Virus record (IMG/VR): IMGVR_UViG_2703719354_000026
DNA length: 5,680 nucleotides
From: a virus
Lineage: Duplodnaviria > Heunggongvirae > Uroviricota > Caudoviricetes
Strand: one strand, 5' to 3'
Shown: positions 1,884 through 5,680 of the stretch, one piece after another
How the letters are laid out: the number at the start of each line of letters is the position of its first letter
Numbering within the stretch: position 1 is the stretch's first letter
Notes under the pieces: generated by a model
Seen by the model: the letters and a program-made list of their open reading frames with translations, nothing else
Told to the model about the DNA's origin: nothing
Database searches by the model: none
Translations under genes and position numbers: made by a program

Positions 1884-2101
1884 AACCCCCCCTCCCCATT
1901 TTCACAATCAGCAACAAGAATATTTTTAGCGTCATTCAGCGACCGCGTGGCGGTGTATCGGATACATTCCAGGGCGAACAATGTGTATTCCTCCCGTTCT
2001 TCCTTTTGTGCAAGCTCTGCCGTGCATTCAATATCAATAAGCGCGTGCATCAGCGTAGTGAGTGCGGCGGCGGCTGCGTCCGGTGTGGTTTTATTGCACA
2101 T
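1856..2101 (-). CDS. Hypothetical small acidic protein (81 aa from internal ATG; ORF track extends to 2158)
   Basis: In-frame ATG at 2101..2099 has GGAGGGG 6 nt upstream, whereas the track start at 2158 has no clear RBS. Overlaps the next ORF by 28 nt. N-terminal 'PDAAAAALTT' resembles 'PDDAADALSS' in ORF 1662..1883. Confidence 0.5.
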   Translation of the reverse strand: MCNKTTPDAAAAALTTLMHALIDIECTAELAQKEEREEYTLFALECIRYTATRSLNDAKNILVADCENGEGGLCVMIVLIP

Positions 2102-2324
2102 GGTGTACCCCTCCGCATTTTTTTTCGTTAGAAATAAGCGCTCTTCTTTCCTGTTCATCGCTCAGGAATACGCAGACCTCACCGCTAAGGCGTTTAAGTA
2201 AGCCGATGATTGCCCCTGATTCGCTGTCGGTCATCATGCCAGGGTAATCCTCTGCCAGTGCGCAAATAACTTCGATTTGGTGGGCGCGTTCTGCTGCCTG
2301 TTGTAGTGTGATTTCCTGACTCAT
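2091..2324 (-). CDS. Hypothetical small acidic protein (77 aa)
   Basis: ATG at 2324..2322 overlaps the stop of the upstream ORF (ATGA). AGGGGG lies about 8 nt upstream, inside the conserved 19-bp junction repeat. Confidence 0.55.
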   Translation of the reverse strand: MSQEITLQQAAERAHQIEVICALAEDYPGMMTDSESGAIIGLLKRLSGEVCVFLSDEQERRALISNEKKCGGVHHVQ

Positions 2325-2782
2325 AAGCCTACCCCCTGACGAATACGGGCGACAAAAATCAGATGTGCGTGCGGCAGCTGGGCGCGGGCTTCGCGTTCAG
2401 TGGCTGCGGTAACGGTGTAAATATCAATGCTGCTGTGGTGGCACTGCATAAAGCGCCAGACAAAGTAAGGGCGTGCGGATACAGCCATGTGAAAGGCTCC
2501 CAGATGAATTTTAAGGAGTCTCGCTACTACGCTGCTAAACATGGTGGCGAGACGTAACAGGGTTAGCAGACTGGTCATCTGGAAACCAGCGAGCACAAAG
2601 GCTCCCCCGTTACGCCCCGCCATAATGCGGGTATGGGTAGGTTTACGGACACAAAAAAACCGCTTATCGGATGTGGGCGGCTGTCCGCCAGATGTATTCA
2701 GGCTGCTAAACCCGGTCGCCATGTGGGCGACGGGGGAAGCATACAGCCCCGTGATAATTTTTTGCAAGCGGTTTTTACGCAT
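2321..2782 (-). CDS. Hypothetical protein (153 aa); the C-terminal 55 aa (from internal ATG at 2488) is a paralog of ORF 2775..2972 and may be translated separately
   Basis: ATG at 2782 with AGGGG about 8 nt upstream, overlapping the upstream ORF's stop by 8 nt. Internal ATG at 2488 has GGGAG 8 nt upstream. C-terminal domain carries 'FVWRF', 'TEREAR' and 'ARIRQG' motifs. The N-terminal part has a hydrophobic stretch ('AFVLAGFQMTSLLTLLRLATMFSSVVA'). The ORF-track version starts further upstream at 2824 (GTG). Confidence 0.45.
   Translation of the reverse strand: MRKNRLQKIITGLYASPVAHMATGFSSLNTSGGQPPTSDKRFFCVRKPTHTRIMAGRNGGAFVLAGFQMTSLLTLLRLATMFSSVVARLLKIHLGAFHMAVSARPYFVWRFMQCHHSSIDIYTVTAATEREARAQLPHAHLIFVARIRQGVGL
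2333..2351. repeat. Copy 1 of an exact 19-bp direct repeat (plus strand cccctgacgaatacgggcg) at a gene junction
   Basis: Identical 19-mer at 2333..2351 and 2790..2808. On the minus strand it encodes the C-terminal 'ARIRQG' of one protein and supplies the RBS of the next gene. Confidence 0.9.
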
Positions 2783-2972
2783 GATGTGACCCCTGACGAA
2801 TACGGGCGGCGAATACAGCAACACAACCGGACGGGCAACGGCTACGCGCTTCGCGTTCCCTCCAGGCGGTTACGTGGATGATTTGAGATTCTCCGGCACT
2901 CAGTGCCAGAAAACGCCACACAAAGGCCGTTTGTGTGTGTACAAGGTGTGGTATATGATTTACGGCAACCAT
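2775..2972 (-). CDS. Hypothetical small protein (65 aa), first gene of the coupled operon; paralog of the C-terminal domain of ORF 2321..2782
   Basis: ATG at 2972..2970 with AGGAG 5 nt upstream. The ORF-track start at 3074 would force coding through a GC hairpin and has no RBS. Motifs 'FVWRF', 'REREAR', 'ARIRQG' are shared with the paralog, and the differences in those motifs are synonymous. Confidence 0.55.
   Translation of the reverse strand: MVAVNHIPHLVHTQTAFVWRFLALSAGESQIIHVTAWREREARSRCPSGCVAVFAARIRQGSHHA
2790..2808. repeat. Copy 2 of the exact 19-bp direct repeat at a gene junction
   Basis: Same 19-mer as 2333..2351; flanking sequence is diverged. Confidence 0.9.
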
Positions 2973-3002
2973 AACGGCTCCTAGTTTACGTTGTTGGTTA
3001 GA

Positions 3003-3045
3003 AGCCCCGTTACTGCTCCTACAGTGCGGGGCTTTGCTTTTTGTG
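3003..3045 (+). terminator. Terminator-like hairpin with T tract in the divergent intergenic region (plus-strand orientation)
   Basis: Stem agccccg (3003..3009) pairs with cggggct (3027..3033), with inner actg/cagt pairs, followed by TTGCTTTTT. The reverse strand lacks a U tract. Confidence 0.35.
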
Positions 3046-3053
3046 TTGATTGT

Positions 3054-3098
3054 GTGTAATGTGTCATTACACATAAATACATTACATGAGGTGTAATT
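3054..3098. promoter_or_regulatory. Operator array: four TGTAAT-type half-sites in alternating orientation, overlapping candidate divergent promoters
   Basis: GTGTAATG (3054..3061) and CATTACAC (3065..3072) form a perfect 8+3+8 inverted repeat. CATTACAT (3080..3087) and GTGTAATT (3091..3098) form a second pair. Spacings are 11/15/11 bp. The array sits just upstream of the RHH gene start (GTG 3102) and overlaps its GAGG RBS. Confidence 0.55.
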
Positions 3099-3101
3099 AA
3101 C

Positions 3102-3281
3102 GTGTCAACACACAAAAACGAAAGGCGTGGTAATCCTCCGTTCCAGTTCCGTTTAGATCCTGACTTACGGGAAAAGATGGAAAAGGCACAACAACAGGAC
3201 GGCGATGATTCTCTTGCTGCCTGGATAAAGCGAATAATCCGCAAAGAATTACAGCAACGCGGCATAGAACCCAAAGGATAA
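3102..3281 (+). CDS. Arc/MetJ-type ribbon-helix-helix (RHH) DNA-binding protein, 59 aa, GTG start
   Basis: GTG at 3102 with GAGGTG 8-9 nt upstream; in-frame stop immediately upstream at 3087..3089. Translation 'VSTHKNERRGNPPFQFRLDPDLREKMEKAQQQDGDDSLAAWIKRIIRKELQQRGIEPKG' follows the Arc/Mnt/CopG pattern (N-terminal beta strand 'FQFRL', then two helices). Below the ORF-track length threshold, so not listed there. Confidence 0.75.
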   Translation: MSTHKNERRGNPPFQFRLDPDLREKMEKAQQQDGDDSLAAWIKRIIRKELQQRGIEPKG

Positions 3282-3338: not shown

Positions 3339-3524
3339 ATGAACAACGAAGAATTACGGGAAATCGCATTATCCATACTTGAAAGACAGGTAGAAAAAAA
3401 ATTAAGAGAAATGGATGAAATGCCTGACCATGAACAGGAAGCAAGGCCAAAAAGATTTGCCCTTGAGGATTTTCTTAAAAATTGCCCAAGAAAGATGAGA
3501 TCGTGGCGTTGTTGTCCGCCCTGA
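3339..3524 (+). CDS. Hypothetical 61-aa protein co-transcribed with the RHH gene (partner protein, function unknown)
   Basis: ATG at 3339 with AGGAG (3328..3332) 6 nt upstream. It starts 57 nt after the RHH stop and is followed by an intrinsic terminator. Acidic helical N-terminus and a Cys/Pro-rich basic tail ('CPRKMRSWRCCPP'). Confidence 0.6.
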   Translation: MNNEELREIALSILERQVEKKLREMDEMPDHEQEARPKRFALEDFLKNCPRKMRSWRCCPP

Positions 3525-3680: not shown

Positions 3681-3748
3681 GCTCATATTTATTTTTTGTG
3701 CAGCAGGTTAATCGTTCACAAAGGCGCTCAGGTAACTGGGCGCTTTTT
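3681..3748 (+). ncRNA. Candidate small RNA of about 68 nt (hypothetical; promoter-to-terminator unit without an ORF)
   Basis: Bounded by the extended -10 element at 3666..3674 and the hairpin + U-tract at 3723..3748. No ORF with an RBS in between. Confidence 0.25.
3723..3748 (+). terminator. Rho-independent terminator-like hairpin
   Basis: Stem ggcgctcag (3723..3731) / ctgggcgc (3736..3743) with one G-U pair, GTAA loop, then TTTTT (3744..3748). Confidence 0.5.
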
Positions 3749-3872
3749 GTTATGCCTGAAAAACCCCAATTTTGTTGTTTTTCAGTTTCACCAGGGCGAA
3801 CGAATCCCCGCCCACGTTCTGGCGTATATTCAATCTTCATGGTTATAGCTCTGTGTTCAGATGATTGATGTG

Positions 3873-3897: not shown

Positions 3898-4086
3898 TTA
3901 ATGAACTGCCTTGCAGCTATCCTTCCAGGCCAGAACCTCGGATAAAGACCAGCCAACGGAACGACCGCCAAGTTTACGACGTGATGGGAATTGTCCGGCC
4001 TTTTCCAGGCGGTAGCGACACGTACGGCTAAGGCCGGTTAGTTTTTTGCATTCTTTTTCACGTATAAACCGATCAGTGCTTAACAC
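3898..4086 (-). CDS. alpA: AlpA-family (prophage CP4-57 regulatory protein-type) small HTH transcriptional regulator / excisionase-like protein, 62 aa, GTG start
   Basis: Translation 'LSTDRFIREKECKKLTGLSRTCRYRLEKAGQFPSRRKLGGRSVGWSLSEVLAWK' matches the AlpA pattern (RFLRL..TGLSRST.YRL...G.FP....LG.RSVGW...E...W). GGGGG lies 6 nt upstream of the GTG. There is no in-frame ATG upstream (stop at 4114..4116). It sits directly downstream of the integrase, as is typical. Confidence 0.9.
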   Translation of the reverse strand: MLSTDRFIREKECKKLTGLSRTCRYRLEKAGQFPSRRKLGGRSVGWSLSEVLAWKDSCKAVH

Positions 4087-4450: not shown

Positions 4451-5680
4451 TTATTTTCTTCTGGCTACTGGTAGTGCGGTTACGTTTTCATGTGTTCCCG
4501 CCAGTATCCCTAACCGCTCCATCCACATATCCAGCGCATTGCGTTTAGCATCCAGATAACGGGAATGATTATAAACTCGCTGCATTCCTGGCATCTGGTG
4601 GCCTGTAAGCTGCTCCACGACGTGAGGATCCACGCCTAAATCGTTCAGCATCGTTGTAAAGGTGCGCCGGATGTCATGTAGTGACCAGTGAGGGTGATTT
4701 AGCCTCCTGTGCGCTAATCTGCCGTACTGCGACACGCTTGTTTCCTGTTTCACTTCCCCCAGCAATAAGCCCGTGTGCCTGTTCTGCTCCACCAGCTGCG
4801 TGACGAACGGCAGTATTGCTTCCGGTATGGGCCGGAATATGGCTACCTTCGTTTTGCTGTGCTCCTTCGGAACAGTCCAGAGCATTTCGGTAAAATCCCA
4901 CTCGCCGATCTCCGATAACCTAAGTTCGACCGTCCGGCATCCGAACACAATCAGGAGGCGGATTAGCGCGATGTAGTAGGGGGAGAATATTTTTTTGTCC
5001 AGTGCCTGCAATAATTCGCCAAGTTCTTTGTTGCTTAAGACACGCTCGCTTATATCCGGTTTTTTCCCAACGTCCGCCACACTCATATCATCAAGAACGT
5101 TGCTGATTGCATAGCGCCGCTTCCGGCAGAACTTAAGCGCCTGCTTGCATGTCTGTAGCAGGAACCCGGCGGAAACAGGGGCTTGCTTTGCCACCCGATC
5201 AAAACAGGCCAGCCAGTGCCGTAGCTCGCATTTATCCAGCGGCATAGGGCCAATGTGCTGTATTACGTGATTATTTAGCCGCTTTTTCAGTGGGTCATAA
5301 TCCACACGGTTTTCCTTTGCGTACGACTCAAGCCAGTAGGTGAGCGCATCACCAACCGTTACGGGCTTTAACGCTTCCTGTACGGTGTAATTCATCTCAT
5401 GACGTGGATTTTTCCCCTCTGCCAGCCATGCGCGACACTGGGCGGCTTTTTCCCTGGCTGATTTCAGGCTCAGATCAGGATAATTTCCCAGCTTAATGCG
5501 GTCCGGTGGTGCCCCCCTTCCCGTTCCGGCCCTGTAAGTGAAATACCAGGTTAAAAGGCCACTGGTTGAATGCCTGACGCTCAGGTTTCCACCGTCATTA
5601 AGAAAGGCTGTTTTTTGGGCGGGTGTGCCGTTGATTTTCCTCAGCTGTGTATCGCTCAGTTTGTTAAGTGCTCTGCTCAT
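4451..5680 (-). CDS. int: Tyrosine site-specific integrase, P4-type (N-terminal arm-binding domain plus C-terminal catalytic domain), 409 aa
   Basis: ORF-track ORF. The N-terminus 'LSDTQLRKINGTPAQKTAFLNDGGNLSVRHSTSGLLTWYFTYR' matches the P4-like integrase arm-binding domain. The C-terminus carries 'HDIRRTF', 'LTGHQ' and 'RVYNHSRY' (catalytic His/Arg/Tyr of tyrosine recombinases). The start codon coincides with the last 3 nt of the window, so the true start could lie further upstream. Confidence 0.95.
   Translation of the reverse strand: MSRALNKLSDTQLRKINGTPAQKTAFLNDGGNLSVRHSTSGLLTWYFTYRAGTGRGAPPDRIKLGNYPDLSLKSAREKAAQCRAWLAEGKNPRHEMNYTVQEALKPVTVGDALTYWLESYAKENRVDYDPLKKRLNNHVIQHIGPMPLDKCELRHWLACFDRVAKQAPVSAGFLLQTCKQALKFCRKRRYAISNVLDDMSVADVGKKPDISERVLSNKELGELLQALDKKIFSPYYIALIRLLIVFGCRTVELRLSEIGEWDFTEMLWTVPKEHSKTKVAIFRPIPEAILPFVTQLVEQNRHTGLLLGEVKQETSVSQYGRLAHRRLNHPHWSLHDIRRTFTTMLNDLGVDPHVVEQLTGHQMPGMQRVYNHSRYLDAKRNALDMWMERLGILAGTHENVTALPVARRK

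Follow-up and report, generated by a model that had tools for sequence, protein, structure and literature searches.

The window analysed here is the whole 5,680-nucleotide stretch of virus record IMGVR_UViG_2703719354_000026 (Caudoviricetes), and its host element is a satellite-type island of the Escherichia group, with an integrase, AlpA, an icd operon, DUF4222 and a RepA-type helicase. A Pfam search of ten ORFs returned matches to DUF4222 and AlpA only, leaving the two icd-like paralogs described below without a match. The icd region, read along the minus strand, contains the following features:

2972..2775, minus strand: icd-like paralog 1, 65 aa, body type B0 (NF033153, 60.2 bits)
2790..2808, minus strand: 19-mer copy 1, encoding (A)-A-R-I-R-Q-G close to where paralog 1 ends
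2782..2321, minus strand: 153-aa long ORF whose start lies 7 nt past copy 1
2333..2789, minus strand: 457-bp cassette unit, comprising the post-copy-1 ORF start, a1/b1, the terminator, C4, a2/b2, paralog 2 and copy 2
2744..2688, minus strand: c4-a1b1-like upstream target region (RF03163, 45.5 bits)
2683..2653, minus strand: isrK-like intrinsic terminator hairpin with U-tract, between a1/b1 and C4 (RF01394, 36.8 bits, and sequence reading)
2627..2540, minus strand: C4 antisense RNA gene (Rfam RF01695, 72.7 bits)
2539..2497, minus strand: downstream targets a2/b2, with a2 TTTAGCAG at 2539..2532 and b2 CATCTGG at 2506..2500
2488..2321, minus strand: icd-like paralog 2, 55 aa, body type B2 (NF033153, 55.2 bits)
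2333..2351, minus strand: 19-mer copy 2, encoding (V)-A-R-I-R-Q-G close to where paralog 2 ends
2324..2091, minus strand: downstream module D0, a 77-aa hypothetical protein, its ATG inside TTATGA and overlapping the paralog 2 stop

Judged by profile match, both paralogs are members of the Icd-like family. Each aligns with positions 1-48 of NCBIfam NF033153 (Icd-like, a 48-position domain with a cut-off of 25 bits), through residues 17-60 of paralog 1 and residues 9-51 of paralog 2, and RefSeq relatives of paralog 1 are annotated as Icd-like. In phage P1, the phenotype of Icd is inhibition of host cell division. Paralog 1 is the first gene after the leader, and a target for the resident C4 is absent from its RBS. 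Paralog 2 is the canonical icd immediately 3' of C4, and the b2 target covers the RBS of this gene; C4 precedes body type B2 in 33 of 34 cases. A tblastn search with paralog 2 against phage records gave no match. The 153-aa ORF crosses a1/b1, the terminator and C4 and then enters paralog 2 in frame, and this frame is open in 18 of the 21 unique cassettes that we collected. Its counterpart in one relative (L005) is labelled by PGAP as a 154-aa Icd-like protein.

Between the 19-mer copies sits a complete predicted P1-type RNA immunity module, consisting of a1/b1, C4 and a2/b2. The RF01695 match covers the full length of the model (positions 1-87 of 87) at 72.7 bits against a gathering score of 45, identifying the gene as a C4 RNA. 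Its loops read CCAGAUG (b', 2582..2576) and CUGCUAA (a', 2569..2563), and the upstream targets read TTTAGCAG (a1, 2710..2703) and CATCTGG (b1, 2694..2688). The upstream region scores 45.5 bits in the c4-a1b1 model RF03163, against a gathering score of 46.7, and the homologous site in L005 scores 46.8. Downstream, b2 overlaps the GGGAG Shine-Dalgarno (SD) element of paralog 2, and a 13-nt arm of an inverted repeat (I1) at the downstream targets is 85% complementary to the C4 loop. The pairing partners of the C4 loop are 2506..2495, at the paralog 2 RBS, and 2717..2688. Across the 21 unique cassettes, two a-alleles and five b-alleles change jointly in the C4 loop and both targets, giving 10 allele combinations, and the cassette length is constant at 456-457 bp in 21/21. 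That the repeats bracket a C4 module accounts for the architecture of the locus. The terminator hairpin scores below the gathering score of the IsrK model RF01394 (36.8 versus 50 bits) and is not classed as IsrK, although the same model gives 66 bits on a relative (L006). A scan of 2200-3200 for promoters gave no match to the sigma-70 consensus. The leader hairpin at 3032..3004 was also considered as a possible resident-C4 target and rejected: its loop, CACUGUAGGAGC, complements another C4 allele and shows no co-variation with the allele resident here.

The order of elements is that of the P1/P7 immI region (a1 b1 - c4 - a2 b2 - icd - ant1/2), in which the second targets likewise lie over the icd RBS, and C4 and the a1/b1 region align with P1/P7 at 75-79% nucleotide identity, an alignment found via the C4 DNA. 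The allelic covariation of loop and targets in the island cassettes also resembles P1 versus P7 heteroimmunity, for which Citron and Schuster reportedly provided the precedent in 1990. In contrast to P1/P7, the island has a second, diverged icd upstream of a1/b1, which leaves the module bracketed by icd ends. Further downstream it has small hypothetical ORFs, DUF4222 and the RepA-type helicase, with no Ant antirepressor, and it is a small integrase/AlpA element whereas P1 is a plasmid prophage. P1 Icd itself differs in carrying about 20 extra residues between its FTAR motif and the junction. In satellite P4, according to what Deho and Ghisotti are said to have described, the immunity CI RNA arises by processing of the replication-operon leader and has seqA/seqC target repeats on either side. 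The a1/b1 and a2/b2 sites of the island hold the role of those repeats, but the island 19-mer is not a target repeat, and the P4 core genes (sid, delta, psu, alpha) are absent from the window. The Salmonella Gifsy-1 IsrK/orf45/anrP locus (RF01394; PMC4825925) likewise places a1/b1-like hairpins, then a terminator, upstream of a coupled small ORF, and there a short RNA activates the read-through mRNA in trans (PMC4825925). The island differs in its sub-threshold IsrK match and in the C4 gene that follows.

The 19-mer CCCCTGACGAATACGGGCG occurs as two exact copies on the plus strand of the window, at 2333-2351 and 2790-2808. Two matches were obtained in 0/200 dinucleotide shuffles, and no further match with up to three mismatches exists on either strand of the window. 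A repeat search of the window returned this pair as well, and the match could be lengthened to 24 nt at 92%. In coding orientation, on the minus strand, the block reads C-GCC-CGT-ATT-CGT-CAG-GGG, encoding A-R-I-R-Q-G, and the NF033153 profile terminates at ..ARIRQ. Past the repeat, paralog 2 has three more codons (VGL*) and paralog 1 has four (SHHA*), which places the repeat near the gene end, not at the very end. The paralogs themselves share 26/55 residues and 54% nucleotide identity. At identical residues that allow a choice of codon, the same codon is used in 6/6 cases inside the motif and 8/18 outside, a modest excess for the window pair (Fisher one-sided p=0.022) tested after seeing the data. 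Comparison of these genes identifies the 19-mers as homologous 3' ends of an icd-like gene pair that has diverged. The sequence-only reading had already recognised the exact repeat at both junctions, its place at the ARIRQG end of each paralog, its contribution of an RBS to the next gene and the divergence of the flanking sequence, and each of these points stands; it had missed the icd homology of the paralogs and the C4 module that the copies enclose. We found no description of this icd-end junction in the literature.

The block also carries a translation signal. Its final CAGGGG is an SD-like element of the next ORF (CAGGAG in relatives; copy 2 reads CAGGGG(G)), followed by an ATG at 2782, 7 nt past the copy at 2790-2808, and an ATG at 2324, 8 nt past the copy at 2333-2351. 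Start and stop overlap in ATGCGTAA at copy 1 and in TTATGA at copy 2. Among 13 ARIRQ-type downstream modules the ATG lies exactly 7 nt after the block in 11, the exceptions being D0 (8 nt) and D14 (a GTG start). Other genera have a different peptide here (FAGRLPV..) and still keep GAG-GTG-CGC-C-ATG-C..-stop. The icd of P1 ends in GTT CAG GGG GGT TTA TGA, with the ant1 ATG inside TTATGA, and the P1 record comments that icd is 'apparently required for expression of ant'. The same junction geometry, an SD in the last codons and a start overlapping the upstream stop, is present in the 13 downstream modules, in the other genera and in P1. Based on this geometry and the P1 precedent, the next ORF is probably coupled translationally to icd, as is reported for ant1 in P1, and we infer that such coupling operates in this island. 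The earlier suggestion of a shared translational-coupling element agrees with these comparisons, in which the predicted arrangement is kept across the family and in phage P1.

To place the junction in its family, we compared icd ends from a sample composed mostly of E. coli/Shigella prophage contigs, partly redundant. A protein-guided scan of genome contigs with a narrow peptide pattern contributed 8 loci, viral contigs providing the larger samples, and 120 loci were retrieved via the exact 19-mer itself; the variant counts given below rest on the protein- and homology-retrieved sets only. The 214 icd ends fall into 6 body clusters (3 main types) and 17 downstream clusters, which occur in 30 combinations. 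The three icd types are joined to about 13 unrelated downstream modules, and the switch point is this block: module D0 lies behind B0, B1 and B2 in 7, 2 and 6 cases, and D3 in 11, 45 and 9. In the consensus sequences of the three types, otherwise about 50% diverged, the block is the sole common stretch. The icd bodies diverge up to its 5' edge (the alignments of H48 and H49 end at query positions 101-107), and the downstream clusters show no relation from the first base past it. Megablast gave roughly 1,500 places in 5,426 E. coli genomes, and in about 30 of the 40 records sampled its blocks begin or end at the repeat, consistent with a boundary at this position. Two relatives (L001 and L003) correspond to the window minus exactly the 457-bp unit, cut at the repeat; six downstream modules are found with and without the cassette, which always lies downstream of another icd. 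Variants at block positions 13 and 18 are common to different body types and downstream modules, a pattern that is no more than suggestive of crossovers in the block and partly circular, since the downstream clusters were defined by the flanking bases. Exact 19-mers lie at icd ends in 151 of the 152 evaluable occurrences. One 19-mer, inside an unrelated gene of a high-GC phage (L197), has nothing in common with the window and was taken as a chance match. The idea of a module-boundary linker for shuffling, raised in the sequence-only reading, is supported by the 30 combinations of body and downstream module and by a cassette present or absent exactly at the repeat.

These are properties of a mosaic junction, a block flanked on both sides by diverged or non-homologous sequence and found with multiple left and right partners. 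Mosaic temperate phages, whose modular evolution involves short-homology recombination and Rad52-like recombinases (PMC3945230), likewise show short identity blocks between non-homologous modules in many left/right combinations. The island block differs in being coding sequence plus SD at a predicted coupled junction, in belonging to satellite-type islands and in its length, since 19 bp is shorter than the published minima for efficient pairing (23-27 bp for Red-beta and 31-34 bp for RecA; PMC3945230). Longer shared runs exist in many type pairs, with about 27 nt upstream for B0-B1 and GTGYGCCATG downstream.

Overall, we consider it likely that the 19-mer combines protein constraint, a translation-initiation signal and a short-homology recombination joint, and is not a dedicated nucleotide element. 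Protein constraint would act on A-R-I-R-Q-G as the end of the Icd-like domain, and CAGGGG or CAGGAG would drive the next ORF, whose start overlaps the icd stop. Being the only stretch still common to the diverged icd types, the block may serve as the crossover point at which islands exchange downstream modules and at which the 457-bp C4 cassette would be gained or lost. Repeated crossovers within the block would in turn keep its sequence homogeneous across icd types. We infer that exchange proceeded by short-homology recombination, through host or helper-phage recombinases, rather than by another route.

An extended version of this explanation, which we regard as rather unlikely, is that the block is maintained as a 'universal joint': a co-opted coupling signal selected to stay uniform so that islands can swap C4 cassettes and downstream modules. 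The two-icd arrangement would then be a standard docking structure for immunity cassettes with at least 10 specificity alleles. In a speculative addition to this reading, translation starting 7 nt after copy 1 would cross AAAAACCGCUU, a potential pairing partner for the IsrK-like terminator's 3' arm, and Icd translation would set termination versus read-through into C4.

Two other accounts appear improbable, each to a similar degree. The identity of the copies could be a coincidence on top of protein constraint, arising from the preferred codons CGT, ATT, CAG and GCC, with variable genes behind a conserved gene mimicking a module boundary. The variants are indeed mostly switches between favoured codons (CGT/CGC, GCC/GCT, ATT/ATC), the p value for the window pair is only 0.022, and a conserved gene that precedes variable genes always has a homology edge at its end. 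However, the other conserved paralog residues, FVWRF and EREAR, lack comparable codon identity; because the icd bodies differ up to its 5' edge, the block is a patch of identity bounded by a breakpoint on either side; and islands with and without the 457-bp cassette differ exactly there. Alternatively, recent gene conversion (concerted evolution) between the copies within this island could have made them identical in a block with no wider role. In favour of conversion, the copies are identical here even though the genes are only 54% identical, and both copies in one relative (L056) carry the minority CGC variant. Against it, the copies are identical in 6 of 12 distinct two-copy relatives, near the roughly 0.4 that we estimate from the counts as the expectation from variant frequencies. 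The block is also kept equally well at single-copy icd genes and, in different elements, across three icd types; conversion within one element cannot account for this.

We think it similarly improbable that the block is a dedicated nucleotide element (for RNA processing, protein binding or as an extra C4 target) conserved independently of coding and SD function. The codon identity (6/6 against 8/18 outside) and the fact that the block alone is common to the three diverged icd types would fit such an element, as would a weak CCC/GGG hairpin, able to mask the SD, in many contexts. However, third-codon positions vary. In the unbiased B0 set the exact 19-mer occurs in 14 of 48 unique contexts, CGT and CGC are near 50:50 in B1, and Cedecea uses CGA ATC for the same R-I. 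Across close homologs the variation is between GCC and GCT, CGT and CGC and, rarely, ATT and ATC, and GGG alternates with GAG. A conserved SD-masking hairpin found no support: the CCC/GGG stem has only 3-5 bp and is inconsistent across 26 contexts, and the GCT and GAG variants do not co-vary. Nor does the block behave as a C4 target: its duplexes with C4 reach -20.3 and -23.2 kcal/mol, where those of the real targets reach about -30 to -32, and it has no complementarity to the C4 loops. An Rfam scan gave no match to the block. Nucleotide-level constraint over the whole 19 bp, as originally proposed, is therefore not supported, given the synonymous variation and the two-copy relatives, and the proposed protein-binding or RNA-processing site found no support. 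Absence or free variation of the repeat in close homologs, together with no effect of synonymous mutation on expression, had been named as the refuting outcome, and the variation in close homologs fulfils a part of it. It is very improbable that a site-specific recombinase or transposase moved the cassette and that the copies are its target-site duplication or recombination sites: the fixed 457-bp unit, direct repeats at its ends and precise presence or absence would suit such a cassette, but the repeat is the homologous coding end of paralogs alike over the whole protein, inverted repeats were not found at the unit ends, no recombinase lies within the unit, the unit always sits behind another icd, the block was not found elsewhere in 8-kb loci reaching the island end, and the same block joins many non-cassette modules.

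Read as a gene end with coding, translational and joining roles, the junction is a real but fairly ordinary mosaic joint, a clean example that introduces no new principle and leaves current views standing. It is of practical consequence for annotation, as the long ORFs labelled 'Icd-like' or 'ash family' and the pseudogenes at this position are mostly the C4 RNA gene translated. For the small satellite-type islands of E. coli and Shigella, it offers a base-pair view of how regulatory and replication modules are reshuffled, with one 19-bp gene end acting as protein C-terminus, RBS of the next gene and putative exchange point. The occurrence in these islands of a P1-type C4 module with many co-varying alleles bears on cross-immunity among co-resident satellites and helper phages.

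The 19-bp repeat CCCCTGACGAATACGGGCG occurs exactly at 2333-2351 (copy 2) and 2790-2808 (copy 1), as the sequence-only reading had reported, and two matches to it were found in none of the dinucleotide shuffles (0/200). No further copy with up to three mismatches was found on either strand of the window, and a repeat search of the window recovered this pair, which can be extended to 24 nt at 92%. On the minus strand the repeat reads C-GCC-CGT-ATT-CGT-CAG-GGG and lies near the 3' ends of two Icd-like genes:

2972..2775, minus strand: ORF of Icd-like paralog 1 (icd-1), 65 aa, protein end ..VFAARIRQGSHHA
2488..2321, minus strand: ORF of Icd-like paralog 2 (icd-2), 55 aa, protein end ..IFVARIRQGVGL

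Neither paralog has a Pfam match, and both match the NCBIfam model 'host cell division inhibitor Icd-like protein' (60.2 and 55.2 bits; cut-off 25 bits). RefSeq relatives are likewise annotated Icd-like and often have two such genes. The flanks have diverged as described, with 26 of 55 aligned residues identical and 54% nucleotide identity. The 48-position Icd-like profile terminates at the Q of ARIRQ, indicating that the repeat is the conserved C-terminal motif of the domain. At identical residues that allow a choice of codon, the codon is kept at 6/6 positions inside the motif versus 8/18 outside, a modest excess in a post hoc test (one-sided Fisher p = 0.022).

The repeat had also been proposed to supply the ribosome-binding site of the next gene, and a start codon does follow each copy at close range:

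2782, minus strand: ATG 7 nt past copy 1, within CATCATGCGTAA, overlapping the icd-1 stop
2324, minus strand: ATG 8 nt past copy 2, within TTATGA, overlapping the icd-2 stop

The spacing is exactly 7 nt in 11 of 13 ARIRQ-type downstream modules, the exceptions being D0 (8 nt) and D14 (a GTG start at the equivalent position). Icd-like genes of Klebsiella, Enterobacter, Hafnia, Pantoea and related viral contigs encode another peptide, FAGRLPV.., and keep the ending ..GAG GTG CGC C-ATG-C.. stop. In P1, icd ends GTT CAG GGG GGT TTA TGA with the ant1 ATG inside TTATGA, as at copy 2, and the P1 record describes icd as apparently needed for ant to be expressed. This geometry, maintained across relatives, other genera and P1, argues that the 3' third of the block is a family-wide Shine-Dalgarno sequence at a coupled junction, and we infer that coupling operates in this island.

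To place the repeat among relatives, region 2250-3100 was compared by megablast with 5,426 complete E. coli genomes. It was matched in 1,232 genomes, and at least 80% of the region in only 35. In a spread sample of 40 records, the edge of a homology block fell within a few bases of a 19-mer copy in about 30, and several sampled E. coli records join sequence below copy 2 directly to sequence above copy 1. Alignment showed that NCTC9112 (L001) and ATCC 25922 (L003) equal the window minus exactly the 457-bp unit 2333..2789, joined at the block. A set of 215 sequences, drawn from E. coli genomes, one-per-species genomes and IMG/VR contigs, gave 214 icd ends, which we clustered on the 60 nt preceding and the 45 nt following the block. 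The bodies fall into three main types, B0 (that of paralog 1), B1 and B2 (that of paralog 2), which are found with 17 downstream clusters in 30 combinations. Cluster D0 follows B0, B1 and B2 in 7, 2 and 6 cases, D3 in 11, 45 and 9, and D5 in 18, 0 and 8; the C4 cassette (the 457-bp unit) follows B0 in 28 and B1 in 5. Six downstream modules follow B0 directly in some loci and the B2 of the cassette in others, and the block is the sole identity run common to the three body-type consensus sequences. The suggestion of a module-boundary linker is supported by these combinations and by the relatives lacking exactly the 457-bp unit. The repeat does recur at gene boundaries of relatives, 151 of 152 evaluable exact occurrences being at icd ends. 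The exception (L197, 2214-2232) falls within an unrelated gene on a phage contig of high GC content; the contig has nothing else in common with the window, and the match is most likely due to chance, given how large the collection is.

A different fusion is seen in relative L006 (1491-2054, minus strand). Its leader ORF, part of which PGAP annotates as an 'ash family' pseudogene, comprises 24 codons from the start of a B0 icd, up to and including FVWRFLAL, before switching to a cassette (IsrK 66 bits, C4 77.6 bits) that differs from the window's and is followed by a complete icd. Fusion after FVWRFLAL suggests that another conserved icd block, at WRF, may also have been used as a recombination joint.

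Nucleotide-level constraint over all 19 bases, one of the explanations first offered, is not supported by comparison with relatives, which carry synonymous and other variants. In samples retrieved only by protein or homology, not by the 19-mer, the exact repeat is present in 14 of 48 distinct B0 contexts; the variants include CGC for the second Arg (11), GAG for GGG (12), GCT for Ala (5) and T at position 1 (3). Among 80 B1 loci CGT and CGC are about equally frequent and GAG predominates, and Cedecea encodes R-I-R-Q as CGA ATC CGT CAG. Nor do the data call for concerted evolution within an element, such as recent gene conversion between the copies: of 12 distinct two-icd relatives in an unbiased set, 6 have identical copies and 6 have copies one base apart, close to the proportion expected from variant frequencies. 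Positions 13 and 18 carry variants common to several body types and downstream modules, a pattern that exchanges in or near the block would be expected to leave, in a test that has low resolution and is partly circular. The block was ruled out as a C4 target, and as a hairpin it offers only a weak, inconsistent CCC/GGG stem without covariation.

Between the two copies lies a C4 antisense-RNA module:

2744..2695, minus strand: c4-a1b1-like target region 5' of C4, 45.5 bits versus 46.7
2710..2703 and 2694..2688, minus strand: upstream C4 target sites, TTTAGCAG and CATCTGG
2627..2540, minus strand: C4 antisense RNA, full-length Rfam match, 72.7 bits versus a gathering score of 45
2539..2532 and 2506..2500, minus strand: downstream C4 target sites, TTTAGCAG and CATCTGG

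The C4 loops CCAGAUG and CUGCUAA are complementary to these sites, and site 2506..2500 overlaps the GGGAG Shine-Dalgarno of icd-2. A sub-threshold IsrK-like match overlaps the a1/b1 region and ends in a terminator hairpin with a U-tract. Relatives (L005, L015-L019, L031, L049, L056, L072, L077 and L108 included) provided 21 distinct cassettes with two alleles at the a pair (sites TTAGCAG, TTGACAG) and five at the b pair (CATCTGG, ACTGTAG, AAATTGG, ACTACAG, AACATAG). The C4 loop and both its upstream and downstream targets co-vary in every cassette, giving 10 combinations, and the module looks functional, with many specificities. In the window icd-1 has no target for the resident C4, and icd-2 would be the C4-controlled gene. 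By analogy with P1, C4 would gate icd-2 translation and then, via coupling and polarity, the small ORFs and helicase downstream.

A 153-aa ORF (2782..2321, minus strand) starts 7 nt past copy 1, crosses a1/b1, the terminator and the C4 gene, and enters icd-2 in frame. Of the 21 cassettes, 18 keep it open, L016 among them by a shifted frame across the C4 region, and PGAP labels its L005 equivalent a 154-aa Icd-like protein; it could be really translated or a by-product of the RNA gene. Segments 2766-2776 and 2655-2665 form a perfect inverted repeat of 11 nt (roughly 0.1 expected by chance per region), which allows AAAAACCGCUU, right after ATG 2782, to pair with AAGCGGUUUUU, the 3' arm and U-tract of the IsrK-like terminator. 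This pairing is a possible anti-terminator that ribosomes initiating after copy 1 would cover. The icd-1 leader carries a GCCCCG/CGGGGC hairpin (3004-3032) with loop CACUGUAGGAGCAGUAA. The first 8 nt of this loop are exactly complementary to C4 b' allele CUACAGUG, which other islands carry and this one lacks. Among relatives the loop is variable and shows no co-variation with the resident C4; read on the plus strand, the hairpin is scored as a terminator.

The window is the left part of an integrase/AlpA-type island:

5680..4451: integrase
4086..3898: AlpA

AlpA is followed by a divergent YlcI/YnfO-like ORF and then the operon, in the order icd-1, C4 cassette, icd-2, small ORFs, DUF4222 and RepA-type helicase. 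Close relatives adjoin roxA and continue with SSB and PerC genes. Two small plus-strand ORFs (3102-3281 and 3339-3524) are oriented divergently to the icd operon. ORF 3102-3281 weakly resembles YlcI/YnfO, its 20 bits falling short of the cut-off of 30; in relatives this position holds an annotated YlcI/YnfO family protein, and the ORF may encode the regulator of the island. These ORFs are followed by a hairpin resembling a terminator, with a weak sau-6072 match (3696-3750). Beside alpA, PGAP annotates 'Icd-like, incomplete' pseudogenes of 480-594 bp in L001 (4167-4760), L003 (2160-2639) and L004 (1839-2432); Rfam found no C4 in them at E < 0.001, and they may represent an RNA module that has diverged or decayed.

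The best-supported explanation of the block combines three layers. Protein constraint would act on A-R-I-R-Q-G, the Shine-Dalgarno would serve the coupled downstream ORF, and the block, the only one still shared, would be the crossover point for module exchange, with crossovers in turn homogenising it across icd types. For efficient pairing, Red-beta is reported to need a segment of at least 23-27 bp and RecA one of 31-34 bp (PMC3945230), so 19 bp would be marginal alone. Many pairs have more in common than this: B0 and B1 share about 27 nt, upstream through the block, and GTGYGCCATG follows the block in many modules. We infer a recombination pathway for the exchange.

The annotated P1 order a1, b1, c4, a2, b2, icd, ant1 equals that of the window through icd, and alignments of the C4 region with P1 and P7 show 75-79% identity. 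A published description of the junction was not found in the literature searched; an Enterobacter survey remarks only that most satellites have an Icd-like protein (PMC13612085). Icd-like proteins, C4 RNA and its targets, coupled junctions and short-homology mosaic joints are already known. Less familiar are a C4 cassette bracketed by two icd ends in integrase/AlpA islands, the precision with which it is present or absent, and the wide range of C4 alleles that co-vary with their targets.
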